The notes beneath the pieces are model-generated. The model was not told where the DNA came from and did no database searches. It saw only the letters and a program-made list of their open reading frames with translations. The position numbers and the translations under genes are program-made. A stretch of DNA of 44,414 nucleotides from Bacteroidales bacterium (GTDB lineage: Bacteria > Bacteroidota > Bacteroidia > Bacteroidales > VadinHA17): the NCBI GenBank assembly GCA_003162595.1, contig PMNJ01000345.1, forward strand, positions 1-44,414, in the 5' to 3' direction. Below, piece by piece: positions 1,868-33,712 of this stretch. Within the stretch, counting starts at the first letter, position 1, and the number at the start of each line of letters is the position of its first letter.

Positions 1868-3643
1868 ATGTTAGAAGAAAATCTTATGATACCATCTATG
1901 GATATTAAAAATGGGGACAATTTTTTGAATTCACAAACAGATTCCGAAGGTCAAAGGGACCATCGAATGGGTGGAACAAGTCGACTGACACTCTCAGAAT
2001 TCGCTAAGCTTAAAGAGCATCCTGACCTTTCCGTTCTTATTGTGGGCGGTGGCATTAATGGAATCGGCCTCCTGCGAGAGCTAGCATTACAGGGAATAGA
2101 CACTTTACTGGTTGACAAGTCCGATTTCTGCTCTGAAACCAGTGCAGCCATGACCCGTGTGATTCATGGGGGTCTCCGGTATCTTGAAAACGCTGAATTG
2201 CGTCTTGTACGTGAGTCCCTGCGTGAGCGTAACCTGCTATTGCAGAACGCTCCACACTACGTCAAGCCATTGGCAACGACTATTCCAATTTTCAGTTTGA
2301 CTTCTGGCATTATTCCTACTATCCGTAATCTTCTGGGATGGAACGCACGGCCGGGCAACAGGGGAGCATTGCTAATAAAAGCCGGCCTTACGCTGTACGA
2401 TTTGCTTGCAGGAAAGAAGTCTCCTCTTCCCAGGCACAGGTTCCGCTTTCGTCGCACAATTTTTGCACTACGGCCGGCTCTAAACCCCGGAGTGATCTGT
2501 ACCGCAACTTACTACGACGCAAGAATCACTTATCCTGAGAGGTTGTGCCTCGAATTGATCCAAGACGCAGAAGCGTCATTTCCCGAGGCACGAGCACTGA
2601 ATTATGTTAGCCTCCAGAGCGCCATAGGGAAAACTGTGGTACTGCGCAATGAGCTATCCGGCGAAACAACTGAAGTTAGGCCCAGAATTGTCATTAACGC
2701 AACGGGCGCATGGATCGATTTCACCAACCATAGCCTGGGGCAGAAGTCCTGCTTTATAGGCGGAACTAAAGGTTCCCACATTGTACTCAACCACCCTGGA
2801 CTTGTGGAAGCAACAGGCGACGAAATGATCTACTTCGTAAACCTGGACGGACGTATCTGCATCTTCTACGCAGTCGGCAGTAAAATTATCGCCGGCGCAA
2901 CCGATATCCCTACTGAAGACCCTGATGCAGTCTGTGACGAGGCTGAGGTAGATTACATTCTTGAGGCTCTGCAGCAGGTATTCCCTTCAATCCAAGTTGA
3001 TAGGTCACATGTAGTTTATCGGTTCTGTGGCGTTCGGCCATTGCCTCAAAGTAATACCTTAACACCAGGCCAGGTCAGCCGTGACCATAGCTTTCCGGTA
3101 CTGATCCCAGGAAACGGAATTGATTTTCCAATCTACTCCCTTGTCGGCGGAAAATGGACAACCTTCCGTGCACTGGCTGAGCAAGTAGCAGACGAGATTT
3201 TACGAGTTCTTGGACACCCTCGAATCTGCGATTCCGCGAATATTCCCATCGGTGGAGGCAAAAATTACCCCCCTAAGATGAATGAGCGGGAGGGAATACC
3301 CCGCCATCGGTTTGTAGAGCTCATAGAACGCTATGGCTCAAGGGCAGAAAAAGTCGCTACCTATCTACAGGCGGGTCCTGATGCTCTGTTGACCTATCAT
3401 AGCGGTTATTCCCGGCGGGAGATTGAATTCATAGCACGATACGAGAGAGTAGCTCACCTTGACGACCTGATCCTGAGACGAACATTAATGGGTATACTGG
3501 GTGAAGTGAGCCTGGCTTTGCTGGAAGAACTGGCAGCAATTATTTCACCGGTGCTTGAATGGTCTCCGCAGGAATCGAAAGCCGAGGTTGTACGAACCGT
3601 GGAGCTTCTTCAGAGAGTTCACGGTGTGATGCTGGCCAGGTGA
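1868..3643 (+). CDS. FAD-dependent glycerol-3-phosphate dehydrogenase family protein (GlpD/EryB-like polyol-phosphate dehydrogenase)
   Basis: Collinear with remembered E. coli GlpD blocks: LIVGGGINGIGLL, TSAAMTRVIHGGLRYLENAELRLVRESLRERNLL, INATGAWIDF, GSHIVL, CGVRPL, GGKWTTFRALAE. The start is uncertain. The first ~25 codons are AT-rich, and the ATG at 1967 (MGGTSRL...) is an alternative. This is the only supported plus-strand gene. Confidence 0.85.
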   Translation: MLEENLMIPSMDIKNGDNFLNSQTDSEGQRDHRMGGTSRLTLSEFAKLKEHPDLSVLIVGGGINGIGLLRELALQGIDTLLVDKSDFCSETSAAMTRVIHGGLRYLENAELRLVRESLRERNLLLQNAPHYVKPLATTIPIFSLTSGIIPTIRNLLGWNARPGNRGALLIKAGLTLYDLLAGKKSPLPRHRFRFRRTIFALRPALNPGVICTATYYDARITYPERLCLELIQDAEASFPEARALNYVSLQSAIGKTVVLRNELSGETTEVRPRIVINATGAWIDFTNHSLGQKSCFIGGTKGSHIVLNHPGLVEATGDEMIYFVNLDGRICIFYAVGSKIIAGATDIPTEDPDAVCDEAEVDYILEALQQVFPSIQVDRSHVVYRFCGVRPLPQSNTLTPGQVSRDHSFPVLIPGNGIDFPIYSLVGGKWTTFRALAEQVADEILRVLGHPRICDSANIPIGGGKNYPPKMNEREGIPRHRFVELIERYGSRAEKVATYLQAGPDALLTYHSGYSRREIEFIARYERVAHLDDLILRRTLMGILGEVSLALLEELAAIISPVLEWSPQESKAEVVRTVELLQRVHGVMLAR

Positions 3644-5145
3644 TCGAAGTCACCCTTCAAGTGTTCGTAAATGTCCAGGAACACCTGATAGCTCAGCATA
3701 TACCTTTTATGATTCTCCTCGTTTGGTTCGAAGCGTCTGTCAAGATGCACCATTTCCGTGAGTGATTTACGGATATCCGGAAAGATTCCGGTGCCCATTC
3801 CCGCAAGGACAGCAGCTCCGAATGGTGAACCTACCGAGGTGCGAGGCAGCAATAAAGGAAGTCCCAACACATCCGCCTTAATCTGATTCCAAAGATCGCT
3901 GCGGCTGCAGCCGCCAACGCTCCTCACTTCCCTGACTTCTGCACCTGCTTTCATTGCCACCTCTATATTGTGGCGGAGCGCAAATGCCGTGCCTTCTAAA
4001 ATAGAACGCACAAGCGCAGCTTTGGAGGTGGCAAGCGACAAACCGAAAAACACCCCGCGGGCATTTGTATGCCATAGGGGTGATCGTTCCCCCATCATAT
4101 AAGGAAGAAAAATAACACCGTCGCTGCCAGGCTTAATACCTGCTGCTTGTCCAGTAAGCAGATCAAATGCATCAGTCTTATTCTCAGATGCTGTATGTAC
4201 TTCAATTTGTCCCAACTGATCCCGGAACCAGCGCAGGCATCCTCCCGATGCGACCATTGCTCCCAACAGCAAATGGATTCCAGACAAGGCGTGCGGCATG
4301 GCGATCAGTGCCGGCTCTGTCAGGCCTTTATCATTAGGCATGATGATCACCGTTGAAGTACCTGTCATTTCGACTGCGATACCTGGTTCAACCACTCCTG
4401 CCTCCAGAGCAGCCGAGGCACTGTCTACTGTCCCTGCCATAACAGGAGTACCGGTTTTTAACCCGGTTGCCTCCGACGCCTCCGCAGTTACCCTACCCTG
4501 AATCAAATGTGCCGCCATAACCTCAGGGAATTGCGAAGTCTTTATTCCGCAGATATTGCAAAGAGCTTCAGACCATTCATCCTTCTGATAATCGCGCAAT
4601 TGCATAAGCGCAGCATTAGAGGGATCCAGGGTAAGCCGTCCTGTAAGCCGGTAATTAATATAGCTGTTTACTTGGACAAACTGCCAGGTTTTCTTTAAAA
4701 CTTCAGGTTCATTATTCTGAAGCCATAGAAGCCGGGCCGCAAGATAAAAAGCATCCGGACGGTTACCTGTTATCCTGTAGATTTGATCTGCTCCCAGCAT
4801 CTCCGTCAGCCGGATAGTCTCAGCTTCCGCACGACGGTCCATCCAGATCATCGCGGGACGCAAAGGTTTTCCGGAATGATCCAGTGCCAGAAGAGCAGGT
4901 GCCTGGCAACTTACTGCAAGTCCAATAACACTTTCTGCACTGTCTGGAACCTTTGAAAGCGCCTCTTTTACGGCCTTGCAGGTTCCATGCCACCAATCCT
5001 CAGGATCCTGCTCAACCCAGGCAGGTCGGATGTGGTGCAGTGGATATTCCGCCTGCCCATCTGCAAGAAGGTTTCCTCTTTTGTCAATAAGAACAGCTTT
5101 GACGGAACTGGTTCCTACATCGATACCAAGCAATAGTGATCCCAT
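3619..5145 (-). CDS. FGGY-family carbohydrate kinase (xylulokinase-like)
   Basis: The N-terminus reads MGSLLLGIDVGTSSVKAVLIDKRGNLL...PAWVEQDPEDWW, typical of XylB-like FGGY kinases. I trimmed the start from the track ORF (5292) to the ATG at 5145. The extension overlaps the transporter gene and precedes the conserved GIDxGT phosphate-1 motif. Confidence 0.85.
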   Translation of the reverse strand: MGSLLLGIDVGTSSVKAVLIDKRGNLLADGQAEYPLHHIRPAWVEQDPEDWWHGTCKAVKEALSKVPDSAESVIGLAVSCQAPALLALDHSGKPLRPAMIWMDRRAEAETIRLTEMLGADQIYRITGNRPDAFYLAARLLWLQNNEPEVLKKTWQFVQVNSYINYRLTGRLTLDPSNAALMQLRDYQKDEWSEALCNICGIKTSQFPEVMAAHLIQGRVTAEASEATGLKTGTPVMAGTVDSASAALEAGVVEPGIAVEMTGTSTVIIMPNDKGLTEPALIAMPHALSGIHLLLGAMVASGGCLRWFRDQLGQIEVHTASENKTDAFDLLTGQAAGIKPGSDGVIFLPYMMGERSPLWHTNARGVFFGLSLATSKAALVRSILEGTAFALRHNIEVAMKAGAEVREVRSVGGCSRSDLWNQIKADVLGLPLLLPRTSVGSPFGAAVLAGMGTGIFPDIRKSLTEMVHLDRRFEPNEENHKRYMLSYQVFLDIYEHLKGDFDHLASITP

Positions 5146-5159
5146 ACAACAATTAATGG

Positions 5160-6200
5160 TTATTGGATAGCGTAGAGAGGGGCGATTGAAACCAGTATCA
5201 GACCCGCCAGATAAAACAGGAACATGAGAACAAGCAATCGGGTTACACGTGGTCCGCCTCCTGCGAACTCCTTCCAGGCAAGAACGCCCCAAAGGGCTCC
5301 AACCATGGTTGAGCCTTGCCCGATAGCGTAGCTGATCGCCGGTCCAATCTGTAAAGCCTTAGGTGCGCTGGCAGCGACGAAGTTTGACAAAGAACCGGTA
5401 ATCCAGATCAGGCCACCTAAAATCCCAAGAAAGTGAACCCAAGCATTGCCTTTCAGATAATCTTTGAAAGTCAACCGTGAGCCCTCAATCGGGTATCGCA
5501 TAAAATAAAGATTAAGAAAGAAAACAGAAACCAATACACCCAGACTAAAAATGAATCCAACAGCATAAGGACCCAATCCGCTTTCTCCCTTCTTACCGAT
5601 TTCGACAAGCGGGTAGAAAGTACCCATCAATAAACCTCCAATTATAGCAAGCTTAATCCCCTTCCAGGTGGAGGCTTTCCTGGCGATGACATCTGCCTTA
5701 TCGCCAGTATCACTTTTACTGGCTGCAAGTGCCCGGTAAGCGATGGCATCCACGATGATAGCAGCCACAACCAGTGCAACACCGGCAAACAGTAAATAAG
5801 GATTTCCCTGCGGGTTAACAATGTAATTCCAGATAACCCCAACTACCAGGGCAAGTCCAACACCTATGGGAAACCCCACACCCATCCCAGCTACAGCAAT
5901 GGCGCCCACTACAAGGATGTTCGAGAGATTAAAAATGACACCACCTGCGAAACCGCAAATTATATTAATAGTTCCCGCGTGTGAAAGATCATTAACAAAG
6001 GTGAGTCCGCCGGCTCCCCATGTACCGAATGTCAATCCGGCAAGAAGTGCACCCAGCGCCACTCCGATTGAGTAGTCATAGTAGAGGAGTTCAAAACGCC
6101 AGCCTTTAGCAAACTTTAGCACATTAGTCCATGATCCCCAGCAGATCATGGTCAGAATAGTGAGCATCAAAACCATCAGATAAGTGTGTGGAAGAGTCAT
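5160..6200 (-). CDS. Polytopic sugar transporter of the DMT superfamily (GRP / RhaT-like, about 10 TM)
   Basis: 346 aa, almost entirely hydrophobic segments. It has an N-terminal CWGSW motif and a central charged loop (ASKSDTGDKADVIARKAS) splitting two 5-TM halves, as in GRP-type glucose/ribose porters. Substrate unknown. Confidence 0.65.
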   Translation of the reverse strand: MTLPHTYLMVLMLTILTMICWGSWTNVLKFAKGWRFELLYYDYSIGVALGALLAGLTFGTWGAGGLTFVNDLSHAGTINIICGFAGGVIFNLSNILVVGAIAVAGMGVGFPIGVGLALVVGVIWNYIVNPQGNPYLLFAGVALVVAAIIVDAIAYRALAASKSDTGDKADVIARKASTWKGIKLAIIGGLLMGTFYPLVEIGKKGESGLGPYAVGFIFSLGVLVSVFFLNLYFMRYPIEGSRLTFKDYLKGNAWVHFLGILGGLIWITGSLSNFVAASAPKALQIGPAISYAIGQGSTMVGALWGVLAWKEFAGGGPRVTRLLVLMFLFYLAGLILVSIAPLYAIQ

Positions 6201-7308: not shown

Positions 7309-8715
7309 TTAAATGCGAAATTGTTTGTAAGGACCTTTGTATTTTATAACAATTATATTATCAATTGAATCAATTGGTTGCTCGGGTAGATAGATCATCA
7401 AACCCTGAGAATGAACATCTACTTTTAATGGTTTCTTTTCTTTATCCGCAAGTAAATAAGCATTATTAAATTCATTGACAAAATCATTCAGGTAGAGCAT
7501 ATTATCCCCCGGCCACCGGAACAGGTGCAGATACAAAGTATTGGGTTTTGCTGTAATCCCGCTGATACTGTTATTCCATCTTACCGATGGTCCACCGCTT
7601 GTTGTGCCATATATAGCTTCACCATTTACAGAGAGCCAATTTCCTACTTTTTTCAAAATTGCCTGTGCTTTTTCGGGCATTACTCCCTCGCTTGTAGGGC
7701 CGACATTTAAAAGATAATTGCCACCTTTTGATGCTATGTCTACCAGATTAGAGATTACCTCATCTGCACTTTTAAAAGTAGTATCGGTTTTATTATATCC
7801 CCAGCTTCCGTTCAAAGTCATGCAAACTTCAAATGCAGTGCTTTGAGAACCGCCAGGTATTTCCTGTTCCGGAGTCCCATAATCTGCTCCGATGCCTCCC
7901 ATCCGGTTGTTAATAAGGCATTTGGGTTGCCATTTATGGATGGAATCAACCAAAGCTAAAGCCATTTCACGGTTCTGCAATTCATCCGGATCAAATGCCG
8001 GACCAGACCAATCCCACCAGATAATACCAATATCACCATAGTTTGTAAGAAGTTCCTTTACCTGACCTTCGAGATATGCGAAATACTTTTTATAGTCGGC
8101 ATCGCGATTGGGGAACCCATGAAATCCTTCTGGATACTGTTTGGTATGGTAAGTATATTTTACCGGAAACTGAGGATGGTGCCAATCCTTTACTGAATAA
8201 TAAAAGCATAATTTCAATCCCTGTTTTCTGCATTCTTCAGCAAGCGCTTTCATTGGATCCTTCCCATATGGTGTGGCATCTACAATATTATAATTCGTCA
8301 GTTTTGAATCGAACATGCAAAAGCCTTCATGGTGTTTGGCGGTTATGACTATATATTTCATACCTGCTTGTTTTGCCATTGACACCCATTCTTTAGCAAT
8401 AAACCTGACCGGATTAAATTGTTTTGCAAGTTTTTCATATTCCTCACCGGGAATATTGGCACTATATTGTATCCATTCCCCGTAATTTTTTCTCCCATTC
8501 CATTCGCCGGCCGGTACGGAATAAAGTCCCCAATGGATAAACAGACCAAATTTTGCTTCCTGGAACCATTCTAATTTCTTTGACGAATCAATGGCTGAAT
8601 CATTCTTGGCTGATTCGTTTTTTTTAAGGTTACAGGATAATAAACTTACTGAAAGCCAAACACTGATTATAACCAGTTTTAAATATGTTTTATAATTCAT
8701 ATGTTCTATTGTCAT
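7309..8715 (-). CDS. GH29 alpha-L-fucosidase, probable lipoprotein
   Basis: LEWFQEAKFGLFIHWGLYSVPAGEW, AKHHEGFCMFDS and IIWWDW blocks are typical of GH29. The signal peptide ends in LLSC (lipobox-like). An alternative start is the ATG at 8700. Confidence 0.9.
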   Translation of the reverse strand: MTIEHMNYKTYLKLVIISVWLSVSLLSCNLKKNESAKNDSAIDSSKKLEWFQEAKFGLFIHWGLYSVPAGEWNGRKNYGEWIQYSANIPGEEYEKLAKQFNPVRFIAKEWVSMAKQAGMKYIVITAKHHEGFCMFDSKLTNYNIVDATPYGKDPMKALAEECRKQGLKLCFYYSVKDWHHPQFPVKYTYHTKQYPEGFHGFPNRDADYKKYFAYLEGQVKELLTNYGDIGIIWWDWSGPAFDPDELQNREMALALVDSIHKWQPKCLINNRMGGIGADYGTPEQEIPGGSQSTAFEVCMTLNGSWGYNKTDTTFKSADEVISNLVDIASKGGNYLLNVGPTSEGVMPEKAQAILKKVGNWLSVNGEAIYGTTSGGPSVRWNNSISGITAKPNTLYLHLFRWPGDNMLYLNDFVNEFNNAYLLADKEKKPLKVDVHSQGLMIYLPEQPIDSIDNIIVIKYKGPYKQFRI

Positions 8716-8774: not shown

Positions 8775-10562
8775 TTAGTACTTCCATGGACTATTAGGTG
8801 TACCAAAATCTGAAGCCAATGGTCTCTGATTAAATGGCACAATTTTACCGGAATGGACATCTAATAATCGCTTGTTCGTTGCTTTAACGGCTTCCACCAT
8901 TTCCTTATATGGACGGTCATTGCCATCAATAAGTCCAATATTATAGTTCTCCCCATCGCCACGTCCCAATACCGGTTCGTCGCCCCATGCGAACCAATGG
9001 GCACCAAGGAAGCAACCAACCGATGCAGCCTGCTCCATATAATATCGGTATGCTTTCCCACGTTCAATCTGGTCCCTGGCCTGTACCAACCCGGCTCCAA
9101 GTCCGTTGGCCGGCACTCCTATATGGAACTCTCCGATTAAAATCGGGCGCCCGGTATAGCGGTATGACCTGTCAAGTTGCGCCATTGGCTCATACTCATA
9201 TACATTGATGCTGCAAACATCGAATTTCCTTCCTGTGCGGAGCAATGCGTCTGATGTCTCACCACCAAAACGTATTCCTAAATTTATATGATTCGGATCG
9301 TACTTCTTCATCGCAGCAATTGCCATATCAAGATATTTTTCGAATGAATTCATTACAAAATCAACACGACGTTTTGGAGTATCTCCCTTGGCAAGATATT
9401 CTTTGAGTTTATCCTGAATCGGTGCTTTGGGGCCGGCAAGGATCATGTCTACAACTTCACTTTCGCGGCCATCAAAGGCCGGTTCATTGCCCACGAAATA
9501 TCCTATTAAAAGAGGATCGTCCTTTAGTGCCGTACACTGAGTTTTTGCTGCCTCATCAATTACACTGGCAAAGTCTTCTGAATAAACATCAGGAAGACCA
9601 AAGATATTAATTCCCGTTTTCGGCCAGCGCATCATAGCTGTGTATGGTCTTCCCTTACCCCCTGTGGTCATCCCCCATGCCTTGAGGCGAGGAGTGGTTC
9701 TATCGACAACAGTTGCATCTTCCTGACCTCCTGGTCGTCCACTAAAACCTGCACCGGCACCATTAGCACCGGTAGATAGGTAGAGATGTCCGTGCGGATC
9801 AACAAACCACCACTTCCCGTCAATCTCTTCGACGTGGAAAAAGCCGGTAGCTTTCGCTTTGGTATCTTTATACGCGCCATATTCACAATAATTGAATTCA
9901 GCAGCGCTACTTTCCCATGTTTTTTCTTCGTCAGCAAGTTCTTTGGCGAGTTGTTCCTTACTTTTGATTTTCCCAGGCCAGTCGGCCCACTTCCACTGGT
10001 TAAATTCATCAAGTACCGGGGTCTTTTCAAGAAATTCTGATCCCTCATCCTGCTTTGAAAGATGCACCGCCCTTATCTCAACAACAGGCTTATTGATAGG
10101 ATACGGCATTGCAAATCCAAGGTATTCAATATTATTCAGACCTCCGAATGGCCCTGCTATTGAATACCAGAAAGAATTGGTCCGGCGGTTGGTTGCCGAG
10201 GCCAGATCAGTTCCGGTTTTGTCCATGCTTAGAAAATATTTAACAGGTACACAGGCTCTGAACCAGATATTCTGACCAAATGGCTGGATTTTAATACGCC
10301 CGGGTGTTCCATCACTCCTGTAGAGCCATAAACTAAACCTTTGGGGAGAAGTAGTTCTCATATCCATCACCAGATAGGTATAACCTGACCAATCTGACGG
10401 CATTGCCGGATTTAGATCTTTGATTGGGATCTTGAATTCACTGAGTGATCCATTAAATGCAAGTTTCCTGACTTCCTGCGCATTTGATATTGTAGAAAGA
10501 AGTATTATCAACTGTAAGGAAATCAATAAATTTCGCAGATTGGTTTTAAATAGATTGCACAT
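8775..10562 (-). CDS. Secreted protein with a clan-GH-A-like (beta/alpha)8 glycosidase signature; family not assignable
   Basis: 595 aa with a signal peptide (LLSTISNAQ). It has an N-terminal region of ~170 aa of unknown fold, then GFFHVEEIDGKWWFVDPHGHLYLSTG. A candidate acid/base lies in YFVGNEP (aa 356-361) and a candidate nucleophile in ILIGEFH (aa 474-480), about 118 aa later. It ends with GENYNIGLID..DRPY. The spacing and motif style fit clan GH-A, but I cannot name a family. Confidence 0.5.
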   Translation of the reverse strand: MCNLFKTNLRNLLISLQLIILLSTISNAQEVRKLAFNGSLSEFKIPIKDLNPAMPSDWSGYTYLVMDMRTTSPQRFSLWLYRSDGTPGRIKIQPFGQNIWFRACVPVKYFLSMDKTGTDLASATNRRTNSFWYSIAGPFGGLNNIEYLGFAMPYPINKPVVEIRAVHLSKQDEGSEFLEKTPVLDEFNQWKWADWPGKIKSKEQLAKELADEEKTWESSAAEFNYCEYGAYKDTKAKATGFFHVEEIDGKWWFVDPHGHLYLSTGANGAGAGFSGRPGGQEDATVVDRTTPRLKAWGMTTGGKGRPYTAMMRWPKTGINIFGLPDVYSEDFASVIDEAAKTQCTALKDDPLLIGYFVGNEPAFDGRESEVVDMILAGPKAPIQDKLKEYLAKGDTPKRRVDFVMNSFEKYLDMAIAAMKKYDPNHINLGIRFGGETSDALLRTGRKFDVCSINVYEYEPMAQLDRSYRYTGRPILIGEFHIGVPANGLGAGLVQARDQIERGKAYRYYMEQAASVGCFLGAHWFAWGDEPVLGRGDGENYNIGLIDGNDRPYKEMVEAVKATNKRLLDVHSGKIVPFNQRPLASDFGTPNSPWKY

Positions 10563-10598: not shown

Positions 10599-13500
10599 TT
10601 AAAGTTGCCCCAGAGAGATTTTAGCCCATAGGTTACTTACTGATAAATCAACAGCTTTTTTCAAGTTTTCCTTTGCCAGATCGCTGCTGCCAAGTCCCGT
10701 ATAACCTAGTCCTTTAAGCAGATAAGCATTTGATAACCTGACATTGTCAGACTCGTGTTCTCCGAACTTGGCAAAGAAATCAACATCGGCGGATGACCCA
10801 TTGTTAATTTGTTTCTCGCCATCTGCAATCAGAGAGTTGAAAATTTCAGCCGCTTCAGCCTTTTTACCAAGCTTAAGACAGCTCATGCCCTGGTAAAAAC
10901 TTATGTAATCCGAACTGCCTGAACCAGGTTCTGCACTTAAAGTAAAATATTTCTTTGCTTCTGATTTACTTCCCATTGCTTCATGGGTAATACCAATAAA
11001 ATAGTTTACCTGAATATTTCTGTTGTTTGATCTGTTTCCGCTTGCTTCTTCTTCAGGTACCTGGCCCAGTATAAAGTTCTCCAACGCTTTCTGATAATTT
11101 TTTTCTTCCAGATCTTTTAAACCAAGTGTCAGATAAGCGTCAATAATTATATCCCTGACTCTTGAGTTTCCCTCACGGTAATTGAATTGCTTTCCGGCTA
11201 AATATTCTACTGCTTTATCAGCTTTCCCTCCGAGAGTCAGCACTGCGATCTGACTTGCAAATGCGTTGTCACGTTTACTGACAATTTCATTCTTCCCTTC
11301 AAATAATTTGAGTCTTTTTTCAATGGGTGCATTGCTCATCGCATACAGATCTTCAAGCTCTTCATAATAAATTGGCTCATCTTTTTTAAGTTCAACTGCC
11401 TTTTCATATTCAGCTATTGCCTTATCTCTGTCGCCCTGGCACTGATAATATCCCCAACCCAGGTTGCGATGGGCGATAGCCATACCGGGATCATATTTCA
11501 CGGCATTTTCCCAATATCCGAGTGCTTTTTCAGGTTGTTTATCGTATAAAATGTTACCCAGATAATAATATGCTTTAGAGTCGGAGGAATTATATTTTAA
11601 AGCTGTTTCGAGTACTCTGATAGTTTCGAGACGGAACGGGAAGCAATAATCAACAGATTGCCCGGACCCGCTTTTGAAGTATTTTTCAGATTCTGCCTTG
11701 TTGCCTTTTTTATCTGAGAGATATCCCAGATAATAAGTTACGATCGGATCTTTTCCATTAAAACGAAGAAGGACATCTCTGGCTTCCTCATCTAATCCGT
11801 CGTTGATATATCCTACCGCAAGTTCAAGGTAATTCTGGTCAAAATCTCTCATTTTAGTTGTTAATGAGGTTAACTCCCTGTCTGAAACCTGGGTGTTGCC
11901 GGATTCTTTAGCTATCAGATATTTTTCGTTGTCTAACCTGAAATCCAGCGGATCAGTTTCAGTAACAGGAGCCAGAGTTGCAGAAGCATCCTTGTAATTT
12001 TTCATTTTTCTCAGGATGGATGCTTTAAGACCGATAGCGCTGTTGTTCCTCGAATTGGTCGTAAGTGACTCATTTATCTCATCCAGAGCCCTGGCAAAAT
12101 TTCCATTTATGGATGATATCCTTGCAAGTTCAAGATATGCTGCCGAATGATAGGCATAATCCCAGGTTGCACGGTAAAGCGTATCGATTGCCTCATCATA
12201 AAGCCCCAAAGCCTTTAATGTAAGCCCCTGAAGATAAAGAGCTTCGCATGTTGAGGGTCGGGTGTAATCTTTGGTTATCCTTTTTATGGCCTTACTAAAA
12301 TAGCTTCTTGCTTTTATGTAATCACCATTTTTAAGATATGTATTACCAACTGCGATATTAGTCCTTATATCGGACGGGTCGCGAAGCAGGGCTTCTTTAT
12401 AGTAATCCATCGGATTTATCGTAGGATTATAAAACTGTTCAATCCTGTTGCCTGTTAAATACAATTCTTCAATAGTGGCAATATTCTTGGGCAATGGAGG
12501 ACTTTCAACTATATCTGGAAGTTTTTCCTCGTACTTTTGTTCAACTGGTTGATAAGAAACCAGTACTTCGCCTGTTTCCGTATTGACCATTTCGGTGTAG
12601 AGATCCGTCAATTTGTAGATACCATCCATTTTTACTGACTGGGTGAAACCTGCTACAGGAGAAATCTCCAAATTCTTTTCAAAAATAACTTTACCGCTGT
12701 TTTTGAGGATAATTTTTGCTTTACTCACTTTCTGAGTGGAATAATAACCCAGAAATACAGTATTTTTTTCTCTTGATTCAAGATTAACTGCTCCGTTAAG
12801 GTTTGCATATTTGAAACCCTGTATATCTTTAATCGGGTACCAGTACTGTTTAAATGATTTTACTTCATAAGGCTTGATCCAGCTATAGTCAGGCTGATTA
12901 TCGGAAAATGCACCAACCATAATTTCCACATATGGTCCAGCATTCTCGGTCAGTCTGCTTTCAGTCGCCTGGCCGCGAGCACCTGATCCCCATTCCCATA
13001 ATTTTGCTCCTTTGACTATATTATGATCCCCGATATGAACCGTGCCTGTTTCCTTTCCATGATCGTATGCGCCCATAAAATCTTCTTTCAGGTCATAAGC
13101 AAAATATGAGTTTGCGCTAATTGTGTTTTTCCACCAACTTATATCGACACCTTTGGTAAAATCCTGTCCACGGTATACTTCCTTTGAAATAGGCCAGTGG
13201 GTAAAGTCGTTTTTAGCATGATAAGTTGCAAACTGCACACTGGGAGGGAAGATTACCTGATAATCTTTATCTGTATGGGCTGCCACATTGGCCCAATTTA
13301 AAAATGAATGAATATAAGGAGTTGGATTTAGTATTTTGACCTCCGCCTGAAAATAGGATTTCCCCGGAAATGCCGTAATCCCTATGGTCCATCTCATACG
13401 TTGCCGTGGTTCTGTTTCCCCGATCCAAATTGTTTTACTACCGTCCTTATTTTCAACCAGATCATAATCAACGGGTAAAAAGCATGAGGCTCTGTGATGA

Positions 13501-13952
13501 TGGAGTACGCACCATTCAATTCCTCCCGAGACCCAGGCTCCTGTCATCCCTATGTTGGTTGGTTTAACTACATCGTTTTTATAAACGAAATTATAATTAT
13601 CGGTCTTATCTGTTGCATAGTATAACTTCCCACCAATTTCAGGGGTAACACATAGTTTAATATATTCGTTTTCAAGCAATAAAGCTTTCCAGGCCTGATC
13701 TGTTTTTTTGTCGGAAATAACATCGTTTAATGCATATGGATAGATATATCTTGACGCTCCCTGGTAAGACTCATTCTTAAAGAATGCAGGATTTTTGTCT
13801 GGAGGCTCAACCTTATAAGTTGGAATAACCCATTGCTGTTCTGACATAGTAACTTGTGCCATCAGGTGATTCCCGATACAGGTAAAGAACACTGCAAGGA
13901 TAATGAGCTTCGAAAATCCTTTCCGGTAAAAAACACAAAAGTTATCTTTCAT
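10599..13952 (-). CDS. DUF5107-type N-terminal domain fused to a long TPR array (1117 aa, secreted)
   Basis: It has a signal peptide. The N-terminal ~470 aa (…LLENEYIKLCVTPEIGGKLYYATDK…GAWVSGGIEWCVLHHHR…) match my recollection of DUF5107, a mutarotase/supersandwich-like fold. The C-terminal ~640 aa show many 34-residue TPR-like units, for example AYYYLGNILYDKQPEKALGYWENAVKYDPGMAIAHRNLGWGYYQCQGDRDKAIAEYEKAVEL. Confidence 0.7.
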   Translation of the reverse strand: MKDNFCVFYRKGFSKLIILAVFFTCIGNHLMAQVTMSEQQWVIPTYKVEPPDKNPAFFKNESYQGASRYIYPYALNDVISDKKTDQAWKALLLENEYIKLCVTPEIGGKLYYATDKTDNYNFVYKNDVVKPTNIGMTGAWVSGGIEWCVLHHHRASCFLPVDYDLVENKDGSKTIWIGETEPRQRMRWTIGITAFPGKSYFQAEVKILNPTPYIHSFLNWANVAAHTDKDYQVIFPPSVQFATYHAKNDFTHWPISKEVYRGQDFTKGVDISWWKNTISANSYFAYDLKEDFMGAYDHGKETGTVHIGDHNIVKGAKLWEWGSGARGQATESRLTENAGPYVEIMVGAFSDNQPDYSWIKPYEVKSFKQYWYPIKDIQGFKYANLNGAVNLESREKNTVFLGYYSTQKVSKAKIILKNSGKVIFEKNLEISPVAGFTQSVKMDGIYKLTDLYTEMVNTETGEVLVSYQPVEQKYEEKLPDIVESPPLPKNIATIEELYLTGNRIEQFYNPTINPMDYYKEALLRDPSDIRTNIAVGNTYLKNGDYIKARSYFSKAIKRITKDYTRPSTCEALYLQGLTLKALGLYDEAIDTLYRATWDYAYHSAAYLELARISSINGNFARALDEINESLTTNSRNNSAIGLKASILRKMKNYKDASATLAPVTETDPLDFRLDNEKYLIAKESGNTQVSDRELTSLTTKMRDFDQNYLELAVGYINDGLDEEARDVLLRFNGKDPIVTYYLGYLSDKKGNKAESEKYFKSGSGQSVDYCFPFRLETIRVLETALKYNSSDSKAYYYLGNILYDKQPEKALGYWENAVKYDPGMAIAHRNLGWGYYQCQGDRDKAIAEYEKAVELKKDEPIYYEELEDLYAMSNAPIEKRLKLFEGKNEIVSKRDNAFASQIAVLTLGGKADKAVEYLAGKQFNYREGNSRVRDIIIDAYLTLGLKDLEEKNYQKALENFILGQVPEEEASGNRSNNRNIQVNYFIGITHEAMGSKSEAKKYFTLSAEPGSGSSDYISFYQGMSCLKLGKKAEAAEIFNSLIADGEKQINNGSSADVDFFAKFGEHESDNVRLSNAYLLKGLGYTGLGSSDLAKENLKKAVDLSVSNLWAKISLGQL

Positions 13953-14114: not shown

Positions 14115-15743
14115 TCATTTCCCCGATATTTTTAATACATAAGCATATTGACAAGGTTGCGAAGCAGGTAACTGAACTGTAAGACCCTTCTCATTTTGAA
14201 CCCATTTTAATAAATCTTTTGAACCAAGCATTTGAATATCTCTTATTTCTCCAAACCAGAGCGCTTTTCCTTTATGCAATGATTTTATTGTGACCTCTTT
14301 CCCGGGCCAGGCCATCAGAATGGCATAAATACTTTTGCCCTTGGTTGTAAACCTGATGTCTTCAGCAGTGTATTCTTTTGGCCGGTTGCTTTGATTTCCT
14401 CTTACTTCCTGTACCTTAGTGGGTCCTTCTCCCATAATTTCCCATGGCCGTGTCCCGTGAATGGCCTCGCTGTTTACGGCCATCCATTGCGCCATTTCAT
14501 CAAGGAACTTATAGTAAGCATCAACGATGGTACCATCGGCACGAAGGTTAATATTTAGCAACAGATTCCCATTTTTACTTACTATATCCACCAGTTGTAA
14601 TACTACATCCTTTGTAAGGATGGGGCCTCTTCCCGAATATATGAGATACATGGGATTGATATAGAAAAATCCATCAAGGCCAGTATCAGTTTGCCAGGGA
14701 TATTTTCTTGGTATATCGCTCTGTGCGTTTTCAAGATCCAAAACAAGTGCTTTCTGCTGTTCTTCCGAACGCGATCCTTTAACATTAATTACAATCTCGT
14801 TTTTGCCGTTGTTCCATTTTTGACTTTGATTATAATAATAAGAGGCCATATCCAACCTGCGGAAAGGAAGACCGCCATCGTAATAAATCAGGTCAGGGTG
14901 ATAGTTGTCTATCAGGTCGACCATGCGGTTTATAAGAATCTGTTTAAAAAGTGAATCGGGTTGATCACCGTCATCACCAGGGAAAGGGCCTGAATAGGCT
15001 CCCTGCTTAGATCCTTTATGAGGCTGCCCGTATAAATCCCGCGGATCATACCCTTCCCACCATTTGCCTTTACCATCGGCCTTTGTCATCCATCCATCAT
15101 ATGGAACTCCTTTCAATGGTCCTGTTGTATCGGCCATGCGGGAAATCTCCCAGTATCTCCAGGTGCCTTCCCCATGATTTGAGACACCGAATTTCATGTT
15201 ATTATGTTTTGCAGCATTCTGCCATTCCTTCACTATATCCCTTTTAGGGCCCATATTCACTACATTCCATGGCTGATATTTGGAGTTCCACATATCGAAG
15301 TTATCGTGATGCATAGCCATGGACACAAAATATCGTGCGCCTGCCTTGTAGTAGAGTTTCATTAAAGCTTCGGGATCCCATTTAGCGCACGTGAATAAAG
15401 GAATTAAATCCTTAAACCCAAATTCAGAAGGGTGACCATATTTAATCAGGTGATAAGAGTAAGCGGGTATCAAATCAGGGAACGCCCAATTATTATCCTG
15501 TATATACAGTCGTCTGGGAAACCAGTCCCCGTACTCTGCCACACTGTTCGGACCCCAATGGGCCCAGATTCCAAACTTGGCATCGCGGAACCAATCGGGG
15601 CAATCGTATTGTTGGGAAAGCGATTCCCATGTCGGTTCAAAAGGTCCGGTTTTCGGCAGAAGCGGCTGTGCGGAACTGACAATGGACATTACCACAAAAA
15701 GCATACTGCATAGGCTAATTCGTGTAACAACATTCATTTTCAT
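14115..15743 (-). CDS. GH29 alpha-L-fucosidase (second, divergent paralogue)
   Basis: DWFRDAKFGIWAHWGPNSVAEYGDW, MAMHHDNFDMWNS and LIYYDGG blocks. SPI-type signal peptide (IVSSAQP). Confidence 0.9.
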   Translation of the reverse strand: MKMNVVTRISLCSMLFVVMSIVSSAQPLLPKTGPFEPTWESLSQQYDCPDWFRDAKFGIWAHWGPNSVAEYGDWFPRRLYIQDNNWAFPDLIPAYSYHLIKYGHPSEFGFKDLIPLFTCAKWDPEALMKLYYKAGARYFVSMAMHHDNFDMWNSKYQPWNVVNMGPKRDIVKEWQNAAKHNNMKFGVSNHGEGTWRYWEISRMADTTGPLKGVPYDGWMTKADGKGKWWEGYDPRDLYGQPHKGSKQGAYSGPFPGDDGDQPDSLFKQILINRMVDLIDNYHPDLIYYDGGLPFRRLDMASYYYNQSQKWNNGKNEIVINVKGSRSEEQQKALVLDLENAQSDIPRKYPWQTDTGLDGFFYINPMYLIYSGRGPILTKDVVLQLVDIVSKNGNLLLNINLRADGTIVDAYYKFLDEMAQWMAVNSEAIHGTRPWEIMGEGPTKVQEVRGNQSNRPKEYTAEDIRFTTKGKSIYAILMAWPGKEVTIKSLHKGKALWFGEIRDIQMLGSKDLLKWVQNEKGLTVQLPASQPCQYAYVLKISGK

Positions 15744-15958: not shown

Positions 15959-17704
15959 TTATTTAACCGGAACCAGATTGACTTTTACCAGCACTATACC
16001 TGCCGGGCCCCTCTGTTCGGGATCTTCAGAAAGAATAGGTTTCCCCTGATCCGCAATAATGTTATTTACAATCTGATTTCCGGTTGAAGTAAGTCTTCGA
16101 CCTCCCAATGAACGATCTGTTGCTACCATGCACACTACCTGCTCTTCAGAAACGTTAGCCAACAAATTATGCGCTATAATGGCGTTATCAGTATCAGCGA
16201 GACGTACACCTTCTCCATCGACATTCCAAAGGATATTATTATCGACCATATTTAGTACCTGTGATGCCTCAATGAAAATAGCCCCCTGCACTGTATTTAT
16301 GTCTAGAAGTACATTTCTTGTGACTCGAGAATTCTGATTAGCAAAATCCAGCCAGATTCCGCAACCACCCTGTATGTGCGAAATATAATTATTCTTTACC
16401 AGTGTCCCGCTGGCACCAAGTAGTTTAATCCCGGCAACTTCCCAATGAAACTCAGCATCCTGCCACCCACAATCAGAGACATTATTTTCCTCAACTATTG
16501 CGTTTGATGTACCGAGACCCCGTATTCCAGCTGTACCGCAACCGCAAACGACATTTCGTCGTACGATATAGTGCCCTATGTTCAAATCCACGGATCGATT
16601 GGCAGGTTGTTCCTGTCCTTGTGCAGGAGGTTGACCTTGTCCTACCACGTTTCGGGGATTCCTCGAATCTTTACCCTCGTAAGCCCGATCACCCATCTCT
16701 ATCCCTAATGAGTTGACGTTCCGTACTGTATTTCCCTCTATAATCCAATGATGTCCACCCATAGTAAAGAGTGCTCCTTCTCCAGTGCGAAGAAATCCAT
16801 TGGCGCAATGCTCTATAATCAATCCGCTAATTCGAATATATCCTAAACCAATAGATTGGGGCTGAATTATATGATGTTGCACGGCGATTTCAAACAACTG
16901 ATTATTCGGATTTTTATTACCAAATGGATGAATATGAATAGTCTTACAATCGGGCCCTACCCAGTAAGAGCCGGGTAAACGAACTAGGTCCTCATACACA
17001 GCTAATTGTGACATACGTCGTCCTTCCTGGAACAGTAAACAGCGTGGAAGTATATATGGTATGCGACCTTTCCACCTTGATGCCCAGTTCATCATCTCGA
17101 ATTCTGCGTCAGTAGTGTTAGGGGTCTTTAACGGGAAGTAACCGTTTTCAAACATATTATCAGGCAGTATCGTCATCAGAATTTGCTTTGAATATGAGTT
17201 AGCAGGAAAACCCAATTCTATGTTTAATTTCAGGCTGCCTGAGGCGGCAAGCGAATCATGAGGATCGACAGATAATACCCACTTCGAAGTAATCACACGC
17301 GAGCCCCGTATTATTACCTGTTCGCCCGGTGCGGCCTCGTATGATATCATTTTGTCAGGTCCTTCTCCAGAATGGAGTGGCCGGACTAATTCCCTGTAGG
17401 TACCTGAATGTATGTAAACCCGTTCGCCAGGCTTCACAACCTGCGCGGCGTGGTTTATAGTCAGAAAAGGGTGTTCTTCTGTCCCATCATTTTCGTCAGA
17501 CGCCTTTGGGTCATTCTGGCTTACGTGATAGGTTCTGGTATAGGTTGTCTGATCGCTCCAACTCATAAATGGGGTCCCGTCAGGCAGTAAAGTTTGCGAA
17601 ACTAAAGGCTGGTAATTTACATCCTTCCTGATCTGCGCCTTTGAAACAAAACTATATGATAATAAAATAAAAGCTAATACAAAAAAAACGGCGATCTTTC
17701 TCAT
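15959..17704 (-). CDS. Secreted right-handed parallel beta-helix repeat protein (pectate-lyase fold; GH141-like or PL-like, unassigned)
   Basis: It has a signal peptide. An N-terminal cap motif, NDGTEEHPFLTINHAAQVVKPGERVYIHSGTYRE, is typical of this fold. Later coils are periodic: IIEGNTVRNV, IVRRNVV, IVEENNVSDC, LVKNNYISHI, VTRNVLLDIN, MVDNNILWNV, IIAHNLLANV. A Gln/Pro/Gly-rich insertion, VVGQGQPPAQGQEQPA, lies at about nt 16592-16684. Confidence 0.7.
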   Translation of the reverse strand: MRKIAVFFVLAFILLSYSFVSKAQIRKDVNYQPLVSQTLLPDGTPFMSWSDQTTYTRTYHVSQNDPKASDENDGTEEHPFLTINHAAQVVKPGERVYIHSGTYRELVRPLHSGEGPDKMISYEAAPGEQVIIRGSRVITSKWVLSVDPHDSLAASGSLKLNIELGFPANSYSKQILMTILPDNMFENGYFPLKTPNTTDAEFEMMNWASRWKGRIPYILPRCLLFQEGRRMSQLAVYEDLVRLPGSYWVGPDCKTIHIHPFGNKNPNNQLFEIAVQHHIIQPQSIGLGYIRISGLIIEHCANGFLRTGEGALFTMGGHHWIIEGNTVRNVNSLGIEMGDRAYEGKDSRNPRNVVGQGQPPAQGQEQPANRSVDLNIGHYIVRRNVVCGCGTAGIRGLGTSNAIVEENNVSDCGWQDAEFHWEVAGIKLLGASGTLVKNNYISHIQGGCGIWLDFANQNSRVTRNVLLDINTVQGAIFIEASQVLNMVDNNILWNVDGEGVRLADTDNAIIAHNLLANVSEEQVVCMVATDRSLGGRRLTSTGNQIVNNIIADQGKPILSEDPEQRGPAGIVLVKVNLVPVK

Positions 17705-17736: not shown

Positions 17737-19029
17737 TTAATCGGAAATTGACTGAAAGACAAGGTTTTTGAACTTGCCGATCAGATTTTCACTCCAGTAA
17801 TTATCTACCTGCGACATAAAAATTCCGATTAGATCTTCCTTCGGATCAACCCAGAAGCGAGTATAGAATGCTCCATCCCATCCGAATGTTCCGAGCGACT
17901 CGAGTTCATCAAATATTCCTCTTTCGGTACGTATCCCAAATCCATAACCGAATTTATCTCCCATTATCCCGTTGTGGGCAAAAGAAGTAAAAATGAAGAT
18001 ATTGCCTATAGAATTTGTAGTCATTAATTCAACACTCTTCCGGCTTAGTATCTGTTTCCCTTCCAGTTCCCCCTTATTCAATAACATTTGCGCGAATCTT
18101 GCATAATCAGTGGCAGTAGAAACCAGGCCGGCTCCGCCTGAAAAATAGGTCTGAGGTTCAGGGTATTGAAAATACTTGGTAACCTTTTCAAGTTTGCCAT
18201 TGGCTCCCATTATGTATAAAGTGGCCAGTCGTGGGAACTTATCACGGGGAAGGGTAAAATATGTATCCTGCATTTTCAAAGGTTCAAAAATCCGTTTCCT
18301 CATGAATTCATCCAGTGGCATCTTGCTTACCACCTCAATGAGATAACCGAGCACATCGACAGACATGCCATAATTAAATTCTTCTCCTGGTTGTGAAACA
18401 AGTGGTAATGGTCCCAGATTTTTTATCATATCGCCTATTGTCCCTTTGGTAGGCAGCAATCCGACTGTCATTCCTGCCTGCCTGTAATATATTCCCTGCA
18501 AAGCGCTGCCATAAGTAATGCCGGAGGTATGGTTAAGCAGTTCCCGTATGGTAATTTCACTTTTTGCAGGTACGAGAATAATACTGTCAGATGTGGGAGA
18601 TCTCTCAGCCACCTTAGGGTTCTTAAACTCAGGTATGAATTTTGAAACAGGATCGGTAAGAAGAAAATAGCCTTCCTCATATAAAGTCATTACGGCAACT
18701 GAAGTTATTGCTTTAGTCATTGAAGCTATCCGGAATATAGCGTCATTTGTCATTGGTTTTTTTTCTTCAATATCCTTCAACCCGAAAGATTTGAAATACC
18801 CTACTTTGCCATGACGAATCACCATAGCTACTGCACCTGGCAATTTCCCTTGTTTTATATAATCGTTTAACACCGTATCTATCCGGTTTAACCTTTCAGA
18901 AGAGAGACCTATTTTTTCAGGAACAGTGGCAGGAAGTCCCTGCCCCGGAGCAATCCATGCTGTAGATAACAGTATTAAAAAAAAGAGGATCATTTTATAA
19001 GTTACTGTAATGAAATGATTTCGTATCAT
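17737..19029 (-). CDS. Beta-lactamase-fold serine hydrolase (class C/PBP4-like; candidate esterase)
   Basis: An S-x-x-K motif occurs in FRIASMTKAITSVAVM about 90 aa from the N-terminus. Signal peptide present. Length (430 aa) and overall pattern are typical of 'serine hydrolase domain-containing' proteins. Confidence 0.8.
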   Translation of the reverse strand: MIRNHFITVTYKMILFFLILLSTAWIAPGQGLPATVPEKIGLSSERLNRIDTVLNDYIKQGKLPGAVAMVIRHGKVGYFKSFGLKDIEEKKPMTNDAIFRIASMTKAITSVAVMTLYEEGYFLLTDPVSKFIPEFKNPKVAERSPTSDSIILVPAKSEITIRELLNHTSGITYGSALQGIYYRQAGMTVGLLPTKGTIGDMIKNLGPLPLVSQPGEEFNYGMSVDVLGYLIEVVSKMPLDEFMRKRIFEPLKMQDTYFTLPRDKFPRLATLYIMGANGKLEKVTKYFQYPEPQTYFSGGAGLVSTATDYARFAQMLLNKGELEGKQILSRKSVELMTTNSIGNIFIFTSFAHNGIMGDKFGYGFGIRTERGIFDELESLGTFGWDGAFYTRFWVDPKEDLIGIFMSQVDNYWSENLIGKFKNLVFQSISD

Positions 19030-29100: not shown

Positions 29101-29653
29101 AAGAGAATATTAACGTAGCGTCCTGAGGAACATCATTTAAAATGTATTTACCTGACGCGTCAGTAAGAATTCCGTTAGTGGTTCCTTTGATAAGAATGGT
29201 AACACCCGCCAACTTGTTCCCTGATTCATCGGTAATGGTTCCCGTAATTTGTTTTTGTTGATATTCTGAAAGTATTTCAGATTGGTCATCTGAGGTGAGA
29301 ACAACCTGACGGTCAAAAACAGCAAACTTAACTTTCTTATCAAACAGATTGCTTAAAATGTCTTTGATTGTTTCGTTCTCCGCATCAATATTTACTTTCC
29401 TTTCAACATCGATTAGTTTAGGACTGTAAAGAAAATAGAACTCACTCTGATTTTCAATCTCCTTCAGTGCATCTGAGATTTTAACATCTTCAAGCTTTAG
29501 GGTTAGCTTAGTCATCTGAGAATATGTTTCAGTTGCCCAGAGCTGAGAAATTGTCAGGATAGATAATAGTAGGGTTAGTTTCATGACATTGATTGTTTTT
29601 TTTGAAAAGAATCCAGAAAGGTTCCTTTCACAATAATCTCGAAATTTTTTCAT
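26177..29653 (-). CDS. susC: SusC/RagA-family TonB-dependent transporter with an N-terminal STN signalling domain (transducer type)
   Basis: Domains in order: an STN-like segment (LKLEDVKISDALKEIENQSEFYFLYSP...FAVFDRQVVLT); a carboxypeptidase-D-regulatory-like domain (ITGTITDESGNKLAGVTILIKGT); a plug (VVVVGYGTEKKADLTGAV); and a C-terminal ...SYDFGISVTF ending in an aromatic residue. I chose the ATG at 29653; the ATG at 29584 is also possible, and the track start at 29731 is probably an over-extension. Confidence 0.9.
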   Translation of the reverse strand: MKKFRDYCERNLSGFFSKKTINVMKLTLLLSILTISQLWATETYSQMTKLTLKLEDVKISDALKEIENQSEFYFLYSPKLIDVERKVNIDAENETIKDILSNLFDKKVKFAVFDRQVVLTSDDQSEILSEYQQKQITGTITDESGNKLAGVTILIKGTTNGILTDASGKYILNDVPQDATLIFSFIGMATQEIPLNGRTKVDVIMAEAAVGLNEVVVVGYGTEKKADLTGAVAQVNSTVLESRPLVNLGQGLEGTISNLQVSQSSYSPGSGAAFNIRGYTSINGGSPLVLIDGVVADPNTLNPKDIESVTVLKDASSAAIYGARAAYGVILITTKKGKKDQKSTLTISSSYSIQHPTNVPQMADSKQYLDFVNQASMNTTGVLQFDQRTTQHILAYYNDPAHNSDVFYDPSIDLTGVYNYCANTNWADALYKNGAVKQLNISLSGGSAKTQYYVSYGLMGQTGNLTPYNDLYNRHNISINVTSDLSNWLTVSGRTKYSNGYQDHPSQNTSMGYENWDISPLIPIKLPDGSWSGEGHFTNPFSNAAEGGWDHTKTNDLFLTGTITIRPIKDLNINADYTFNPYNQNHDLYIREYYEPRADGTTALYPWTNPNSITDDNTLRFYNAVNIYADYSKSFSKNNFKILVGYNQETQSTQFFSAQRLNLIDNDLPAINAATGIATVNGSNTLWAVQGEFFRFNYDYDGKYLLELNGRYDGSSKFPTNDRYAFFPSVSGGWLISKEAFWDNLKSYVDVLKIRGSYGSLGNQNVPGNFPYVSSYIITTAPTSPGAAGNIASYILGGATPVTMQAGSLVSPSLTWEKVNQWDIGFDLGFFKDKLSVSYDYYNRATIGMLTPGETLPAVLGAAVPNQNAANLKTYGWDFDVTWKDHIGDFSYSISANLSDAQSEITKYSNPSGLLSSYYAGEKIGDIWGFDAAGLFQSSAQIASSPDQSQLYAGTWNPGDVKYVDRNGDGKITFGNNTLSNPGDQHIIGNSTPRYLYGVTMNGAWKGIDLSLFLQGVGKRDIWPNLDWADQDRFFGTNGTSGFAPSKYAMDYWTTQNPNAYFPNNYLSGWGDGGHGNRQICGRYLQNGAYMRLKQLTLGYTIPEEIVKKVSISNLRVYFTMQNVLTFTKLTQLYDPEANSSNSYPIPSSYDFGISVTF

Positions 29654-29803
29654 AGATTTGAATGGATTAAGTTTACTTAAGTTTTTTAACAGAAATCTAG
29701 TTCTTAGTCTGGCGGGATTGTGTGGTAGCACTATCCCGCTTTTTTCATAATTAGCTTTGTTTCATAAGCATATCATTTTATTGGTTAGGATCATGTTCGT
29801 ATT

Positions 29804-33633: not shown

Positions 33634-33712
33634 TTTCAATAAATTAAGTTTTTTAAAAATATGTTCTTCTATTAAAGACACATAGCAGTAAAATTAAATT
33701 AGTTTTACGAAG

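Follow-up and report, generated by a model that had tools for sequence, protein, structure and literature searches.

A DUF5107-TPR protein in a fucosidase-rich polysaccharide utilization locus: a candidate carbohydrate-active enzyme of a widespread bacterial family

What is the task of a protein that joins DUF5107, a domain of unknown function, to a long array of tetratricopeptide repeats (TPR), and that is encoded among glycosidases in a polysaccharide utilization locus (PUL)? The question is raised by a gene on contig PMNJ01000345.1 of a Bacteroidales bacterium (assembly GCA_003162595.1), whose 44,414 nucleotides are called the window here. Positions 10599..13952 hold a complete open reading frame (ORF) on the minus strand, with an ATG start and 1117 aa plus stop. 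The original prediction, made from the letters of the sequence, had the existence and length of this ORF right and needed correction to the minus strand. It left the protein's role between a new catalytic fold and a scaffold for surface enzyme complexes. In our judgment there is about an even chance that DUF5107-TPR is an uncharacterized carbohydrate-active enzyme, probably a glycoside-cleaving one. We favor this for four reasons: the protein is found in the periplasm of Bacteroidota and in the cytoplasm of many other sampled lineages; its gene adjoins sugar importers and AraC/LacI regulators; one locus encodes a mutarotase in addition to it; and residues resembling those of a sugar pocket are invariant.

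The layout of the protein could be read from end to end, and two relatives, P0001 (99% identity) and P0002 (85%), are likewise 1117 aa long. All features below lie on the minus strand. The N-terminus, MKDNFCVFYRKGFSKLIILAVFFTCIGNHLMA|QV, resembles an SPI signal peptide, which by sequence reading covers aa 1-32 (13857..13952) with predicted cleavage at ...HLMA|QV. A galactose-mutarotase-like beta-supersandwich follows at aa ~35-375 (12828..13850), as assigned from Pfam PF17128, AlphaFold and Foldseek. The Pfam match to DUF5107 spans aa 70-374 and profile positions 6-310 of 310 (E 1.6e-57, 195.3 bits against a cut-off of 24.4), a full-length match that bears out the domain named at the outset. 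A small all-beta (Ig-like) domain at aa ~385-470 (12543..12800), recognized from DSSP strands in model m664c6f79ecb7, links the sandwich to the TPR array. The rest, aa 494-1117 (10602..12473), is a family-specific TPR solenoid of ~36 helices, or 17-18 hairpins, delimited by Pfam TPR families, the model, Foldseek and conservation. From ~aa 515 on, TPR families of Pfam score above their cut-offs (TPR_2 with 85 bits against 27, TPR_16, TPR_12, TPR_1 and others), in keeping with the ~640 aa of TPR first proposed. For this protein NCBIfam returned nothing but TPR similarities, for example to BcsC and PilW, with every score far under cut-off.

Two AlphaFold models were built, one of the full-length protein with 27 close orthologues and one of aa 31-490 with 126 diverse sequences. 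The full-length model places ~36 helices at aa 494-1116 with a pLDDT mostly of 80-95, while the shorter model reaches a pLDDT of 93 and a pTM of 0.92. The top match of the aa 31-490 model in a Foldseek search of the Protein Data Bank (PDB) was 5CD6 (E 3e-23, TM 0.64, 24% identity). This is BDI_1685 of Parabacteroides distasonis, deposited by structural genomics as a 'TPR-domain containing protein', in which a homologous DUF5107 supersandwich is followed by TPR helices and to which a function has likewise not been assigned. The kinship to the window protein is also found by phmmer (E 3.5e-22) and by profile (E 7e-37), and 5CD6 was the only protein found in a profile search of the PDB. Next in the Foldseek ranking came more than 20 aldose 1-epimerases (probability 1.00, E 1e-11 to 1e-7, TM 0.5-0.67 on target, 7-11% identity), and thereafter supersandwich domains of GH2, GH36, GH38, PL17 and YidC. 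In the predicted structure the N-terminal domain is thus confirmed as a galactose-mutarotase-like beta-supersandwich, as had been supposed before structure prediction and the Foldseek search were run. For the full-length model, the top 50 Foldseek matches were open TPR solenoids such as Ctr9, Ski3, OGT and TTC7. A closed alpha/alpha-barrel glycosidase of the GH15/GH65/GH95 type was considered for the helical half and rejected, with no glycosidase barrel among those top 50 and with a low-confidence domain arrangement in the model.

Conservation is strongest in the sandwich. Among 58 full-length representatives with 26-66% identity to the query, 25 alignment columns are invariant. Twenty-three of them lie in the sandwich (P55, P72, N95, P104, G108, P131, G135, G138, W140, S142, G143, H153, N209, N222, H245, P254, S282, G303, L334, Y341, E343, N352 and D355) and two in the TPR half (W597 and R829). 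Nearly invariant are E94, D115, K116, E146, H152, R154, D297, K317, Q353 and E363, and 126 sequences from several phyla gave the same result. The GAWVSGGIEWCVLHHHR block, cited in the original prediction, is located at aa 138-154. Family alignments place His151-His152-His153 within the GGIEWCVLHHHR block (13494..13502); H153 is invariant in all alignments, and H152 is invariant in alignment A4 and nearly so in A2 and A3. Glu343...Asn352-Gln353-Pro354-Asp355 form a further block, YVEIMVGAFSDNQPD (12888..12926), marked by its invariance and by its likeness to the E309-x8-N-H-P of GalM. A putative ligand-binding or catalytic site would be expected to show so many conserved His, Glu, Asp and Asn. 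The conserved polar residues mapped across homologues are many, and they are consistent with the catalysis that the original prediction had entertained.

Aldose 1-epimerases (GalM, PF01263) share the beta-supersandwich fold with the window protein, and near the catalytic Glu and sugar-binding Asp the local motifs are alike. At the motif level, E343-x8-N352-Q-P…P361-x-E363 resembles E. coli GalM E309-x8-N318-H-P…P331-G-E333, and YD297H resembles GalM GYD245H. We take the catalytic residues of E. coli GalM to be His104, His175 and Glu309, plus Asp245. On comparison of the motifs, GalM His104 may have its counterpart in the HHH block (H152/153). The window protein is unlike GalM in its low identity (7-11%) and in its added Ig-like domain and 620-aa TPR solenoid.

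These likenesses could also be taken to mean that the protein is a specialized mutarotase, or a ring-opening isomerase or epimerase, that acts by GalM-type Glu/His chemistry on a sugar, such as L-fucose or galactose, set free in the periplasm or cytoplasm. The fold, the GalM-like motifs around E343 and D297 and a neighborhood rich in fucosidases and galactosidases would all suit such an enzyme. However, the protein has no match to PF01263 (Aldose_epim) at E <= 0.01, and Asn222 may stand where GalM has its acid, His175. A monosaccharide enzyme would also leave 750 extra aa, ~620 of them conserved TPR, unexplained. We consider a mutarotase improbable, and a locus with a mutarotase gene of its own, described below, adds to this judgment.

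The interest of the gene rests on its family, not on the window copy. More than 5,900 relatives came out of a word-indexed search; the top 120 were all 1,088-1,134 aa long and, over 97-100% of the query, 68-99% identical to it. When the N-terminal 446 aa were searched exhaustively, 3,516 clusters at 50% identity resulted, of which 783 were at E <= 1e-30; among the best 150 of the 3,516 clusters, most are 1,000-1,170 aa long. A scan of species-representative genomes yielded more than 578 loci, and the best 80 of these come from Rikenellaceae, Prolixibacteraceae, Tannerellaceae, Flavobacteriaceae, Cyclobacteriaceae and others. Since full-length orthologues at 55-99% identity occur across Bacteroidota in hundreds of genomes, the gene is far beyond chance. 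Full-length relatives with 26-50% identity are found in Firmicutes, Planctomycetota, Acidobacteriota, Chloroflexota and others, and the family as a whole spans at least seven phyla. The fusion to TPR, first seen as an oddity, is instead the standard architecture of the family: DUF5107 plus ~620-640 aa of TPR, ~1,100 aa in total. The window gene is an ordinary full-length orthologue in the family catalogued by Pfam (DUF5107) and NCBI ('DUF5107 domain-containing protein', ~1,100 aa), from whose members it differs in context and not in structure. A DUF5107 orthogroup has also been listed, among digestive enzymes, as an indicator of phagotrophic stramenopiles (PMC8163842). Tandem same-strand DUF5107-TPR paralogues were seen in loci L012 and L073.

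The TPR half is shared as well. It has 34% identity over 637 aa between the window protein and its Paenibacillus counterpart, and judged from the alignments it is a family-specific, co-evolving orthologous module. A natural (Rosetta-stone) split between the two halves was considered for Paenibacillus L088 and Muricomes L089, where they are annotated as two genes, and was rejected in favor of frameshifts. In a six-frame reading, the EELYL.G.HLEQY junction motif continues in the other frame upstream of the annotated TPR start (9300-9540 in L088 and 9380-9680 in L089), which points to sequencing errors or pseudogenes.

The location of the protein bears on what it can do. Because it has an SPI-type signal, no conserved lipobox Cys and no tail of the type IX secretion system (T9SS), the window protein is most likely periplasmic and soluble, and neither surface-attached nor released, as far as its sequence signals tell. 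The only candidate Cys for a lipobox, Cys25 (FFTC), is outside lipobox context, and the consensus of orthologues reads MK...L.AQVK. Pfam gave no match to the T9SS C-terminal domain (Por_Secre_tail), and the TPR helices reach the last residue. The original prediction of a secreted protein therefore stands, with the periplasm as its most likely destination. Elsewhere in the family, in about half of the long representatives, the conserved domain begins no more than 16 residues from the N-terminus and leaves no room for a signal peptide; members without a signal peptide are therefore cytoplasmic.

A different account of these data is a non-catalytic glycan-binding or scaffold protein, in which the sandwich would bind sugar in the manner of a carbohydrate-binding module (as in GH2, GH31, GH36 and YidC P1) and the TPR would recruit periplasmic enzymes. 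Known examples of TPR scaffolds that deal with polysaccharides in the periplasm are AlgK, PelB, BcsC and PgaA. The long solenoid matches the protein scaffolds Ctr9, Ski3, OGT and TTC7, and the supersandwich is often an accessory domain, with GH2, GH36, GH38, PL17 and YidC among the Foldseek matches. The partners encoded nearby vary, which would suit a scaffold, yet no gene is a constant partner. The invariant His, Glu, Asp and Asn exceed what the fold needs. The TPR half, moreover, co-evolves as an orthologous module with an invariant Trp and Arg, unlike a generic array, and cytoplasmic members lie in operons with ATP-binding cassette (ABC) sugar transporters, one of them without any other glycan-cleaving candidate. 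We think a scaffold rather unlikely. The version first proposed, a scaffold for surface complexes, is disfavored in addition by the lack of a lipoprotein or T9SS signal, by the ~half of long members without a signal peptide and by the cytoplasmic ABC sugar operons.

The operons in question come from the genomic neighborhoods of relatives, for which 84 Bacteroidota loci, 97 sampled immediate neighbors and seven non-Bacteroidota loci were counted. One non-Bacteroidota locus combines a histidine kinase and AraC-type response regulator, an ABC transporter, a GH42-like protein and DUF5107-TPR. A second has a LacI-type regulator, a solute-binding protein, two permeases, DUF5107-TPR and a Zn-dependent alcohol dehydrogenase; in this operon DUF5107-TPR is the sole candidate to cleave the imported sugar. 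A third has AraC, an ABC transporter, DUF5107-TPR and a melibiase-like protein. In a fourth, with AraC and DUF5107-TPR, the very next gene downstream is a genuine Aldose_epim (PF01263), so that a mutarotase role for DUF5107-TPR would be redundant there. Both frameshifted Firmicute genes have a divergent AraC-type regulator, and the Paenibacillus locus also has an ABC transporter and a GH36 gene just upstream. One of the seven loci has no sugar-related neighbors. A tblastn search for GalM homologues in 90-odd loci found none.

An AraC- or LacI-type regulator lies beside the gene in six of the seven non-Bacteroidota loci. By analogy to the superhelical sensor of MalT or to RRNPP proteins, DUF5107-TPR could be a sugar-sensing regulator whose ligand-bound sandwich and TPR modulate a transcription factor, and TPR-like sensor domains are known. 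However, regulators beside catabolic enzymes are the norm and not specific, and Pfam found no DNA-binding, kinase or membrane domain in the protein that could serve as output. Members from Bacteroidota are periplasmic, and the PUL of the window already has a sigma/anti-sigma system of its own. A sensor role is very improbable in our view.

The preferred reading, a carbohydrate-active enzyme, would work as follows. The window protein would act in the periplasm on oligosaccharides after their import by SusC/SusD. Its supersandwich would, as judged from the motifs, retain a mutarotase-type sugar pocket, where Glu343 would take over the position of the catalytic base of GalM. Asp297 and the histidines may bind the sugar, or they may act in acid/base chemistry at the anomeric carbon or next to it. 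The TPR solenoid would serve as an extended glycan-binding groove, platform or lid and not as a generic protein-protein adaptor. Fucose- and galactose-containing oligosaccharides are the likely substrates, processed alongside the GH29, GH95, GH2 and GH50-like enzymes. A narrower proposal is that DUF5107-TPR founds a new family of carbohydrate-active enzymes, whether glycoside hydrolase, lyase or phosphorylase, in which the supersandwich would be catalytic through Glu343 and the His cluster and the TPR would be a glycan platform. This we hold tentatively, as possible though doubtful. We know of no carbohydrate-active enzyme described with a mutarotase-fold catalytic center and a TPR platform.

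Several observations weigh against an enzyme. In the full-length model, the sandwich has a pLDDT below 50 and its arrangement relative to the TPR is of low confidence. Alignment with hhalign of family profiles to E. coli GalM, and to a six-sequence mutarotase alignment rebuilt from PDB alignments, gave probabilities below 1%; only the C-terminal Glu/NQP block was paired sensibly, at a level that is not significant. Kinship to GalM at the sequence level was dropped for this reason, and the comparison was kept at the level of motifs. The counterpart of GalM His175 may be N222 or H245, the motif comparison not deciding between them. To our knowledge, no glycoside hydrolase or lyase has a mutarotase-like sandwich and TPR as its catalytic unit. 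The genomic neighbors are of many kinds, and numerous orthologues stand alone. In the literature searched, where subscription-only papers were possibly missed, no functional study of DUF5107, PF17128, IPR033396, 5CD6 or BDI_1685 was found; the absence of a published biochemical function, assumed at the start, thus held. Finally, the relative with a solved structure, 5CD6, has no H152 (ISH instead of HHH) and no NQPD block. At 580 aa against 1117 aa it is half the size, with a much shorter TPR part. On sequence comparison, BDI_1685 is a divergent subfamily or distant paralogue and not an orthologue, because of its half size and because it lacks H152 and the NQPD block.

Other known systems resemble the window protein in part. 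GH15, GH65, GH94, GH95, PL8, PL15, PL17 and PL21 likewise combine a mutarotase-like sandwich with a large alpha-helical hairpin domain. In these enzymes the helices form closed (alpha/alpha)n barrels or toroids that bear the active site, whereas the helical part of the window protein matches open TPR solenoids only and its strongest conservation is in the sandwich. AlgK, PelB, BcsC and PgaA, together with the TPR-like fold of SusD, share with it the theme of TPR helices acting on glycans in the cell envelope. In contrast to the window protein, they are export scaffolds or outer-membrane lipoproteins without a mutarotase-like domain.

DUF5107-TPR, with ~3,500 clusters in at least seven bacterial phyla plus phagotrophic protists, is strongly conserved and recurrent in glycan-utilization loci, and it has no assigned function even though the structure of one relative has been solved. 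Should it prove to be an enzyme, the repertoire of carbohydrate-active enzymes would gain a new catalytic architecture. A gap in many PULs and in Gram-positive sugar operons would then be closed, and the digestive abilities of gut, soil and sediment bacteria could be predicted better. For tests, the window copy has a well-defined setting, a PUL rich in fucosidases in which the GH50-like neighbor is a recurrent one.

The neighborhoods in Bacteroidota are varied. The commonest neighbor is a LacZ-type GH2 protein of ~1,255 aa, found in convergent orientation in 20 of the 84 loci. It carries a Laminin_G_3 insertion and lies immediately downstream of DUF5107-TPR (for example at 13459-17232 in L001, 13493-17278 in L002 and 4793-8554 in L084). 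This arrangement is probably lineage synteny, and it could reflect a functional link to galactosides. A constant operon partner was looked for and dismissed, the commonest neighbor being this convergently transcribed GH2. Same-strand neighbors include GH28, GH106, GH123-like, GH5 and GH42-like proteins, sulfatases, SusC/D and PKD/BT_3987-like proteins. Among the 97 sampled neighbors, GH2 occurs 9-10 times, sulfatase five times, a GlcNAc-2-epimerase-like protein four times, and GH88, GH28 and GH106 three times each. The enrichment of immediate neighbors in GH2, sulfatase, GH88, GH28, GH106 and GH123 speaks for the enzyme reading. Most Bacteroidales orthologues stand alone or beside the 1,255-aa GH2, while the window copy and its 85% relative lie in a fucosidase-rich PUL. 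The context of that relative, P0002, is the same as in the window: GH29-GH29-DUF5107-592aa.

Read in order, the minus-strand genes of the window encode an extracytoplasmic function (ECF) sigma factor, an anti-sigma factor, SusC, SusD, a 972-aa protein, GH2, a beta-lactamase-fold protein, a beta-helix protein, GH29, DUF5107-TPR, a 595-aa protein and GH29. The placement of the gene inside a PUL is upheld by this array. Profile searches identified the SusD-like gene (24372-26156) and the SusC-like gene with an STN domain (26177-29731), both on the minus strand, which together define the PUL. Ten co-directional genes were counted after them, among which are six up to DUF5107-TPR and then two more, with GH2, two GH29 and the GH50-like gene included. 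Tested by its relation to SusC and SusD, the DUF5107-TPR gene belongs to the PUL. The anti-sigma factor (29804-30892, minus strand) and the ECF sigma factor (31135-31722, minus strand) were read from ORF translations, with no profile search run. The pair is taken to regulate the PUL, on the basis of these translations and of the STN domain in the SusC-like protein.

The upstream neighbor of DUF5107-TPR is a GH29 alpha-L-fucosidase (14115..15743), and a second GH29 alpha-L-fucosidase (7309..8715) is the last glycosidase gene of the array; both were assigned by Pfam and lie on the minus strand. DUF5107-TPR is separated from the upstream GH29 gene by 162 nt and from the downstream 595-aa ORF (8775..10562, minus strand) by 36 nt, the latter as first reported. 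No terminator-like sites were found on the minus strand between the GH29, DUF5107-TPR and 595-aa genes. The 595-aa ORF has neither a Pfam nor an NCBIfam match. A PDB sequence search identified it as a distant homologue of GH50, the beta-agarase family, with matches to the GH50 beta-agarases 6xj9, 4bq2 and 5z6p at E 2e-44 to 5e-34. It carries GNEP and GEFH motifs of the kind usual in clan GH-A. Since the PUL is rich in fucosidases and apparently does not target agar, the specificity of this GH50-like enzyme would seem to be a different one. Homologues with 35-38% identity are present in about 4-5 of the 84 loci (adjacent in L076, L048 and L062, and present in L070). Tight linkage to the neighbors thus stands as far as the 36-nt gap is concerned, while coupling to the downstream gene receives modest support.

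Farther upstream in the window lie GH95, a GH35/42-like protein, GH31, GH78 and an arabinose/fucose-isomerase-like gene. The target of the locus looks to be a glycan containing fucose, galactose and rhamnose. The isomerase-like gene (32221-33681, minus strand), between the regulator genes and GH78, has weak Pfam matches only, and a 62%-identical homologue of it adjoins the DUF5107-TPR gene in L066.

Some further genes of the window deserve mention. The 972-aa protein (21252-24170, minus strand) has a signal peptide, is encoded directly downstream of SusD and is a candidate enzyme of the PUL; it has no NCBIfam or PDB sequence match, and its sole Pfam match is a sub-threshold one to a xylose-isomerase-like TIM barrel at aa 758-893. 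The beta-lactamase-fold (serine hydrolase) protein (17737-19029, minus strand) stands amid the glycosidases and may be an esterase, and its gene is retained in the locus of the 85% orthologue (L086). The right-handed beta-helix protein (15959-17704, minus strand) has a DUF1565/Pel9A-like N-terminus and may be a GH141/PL-like enzyme. A 167-aa ORF on the plus strand (24631-25134) is a shadow ORF within the SusD gene. The ORFs at 3619-5292 and 5160-6200, both on the minus strand, overlap by 133 nt, and the TTG start given for the 557-aa ORF is probably too far upstream. The true start of this ORF is likely an internal Met, and its translation, with no profile search run, reads as sugar-kinase-like.

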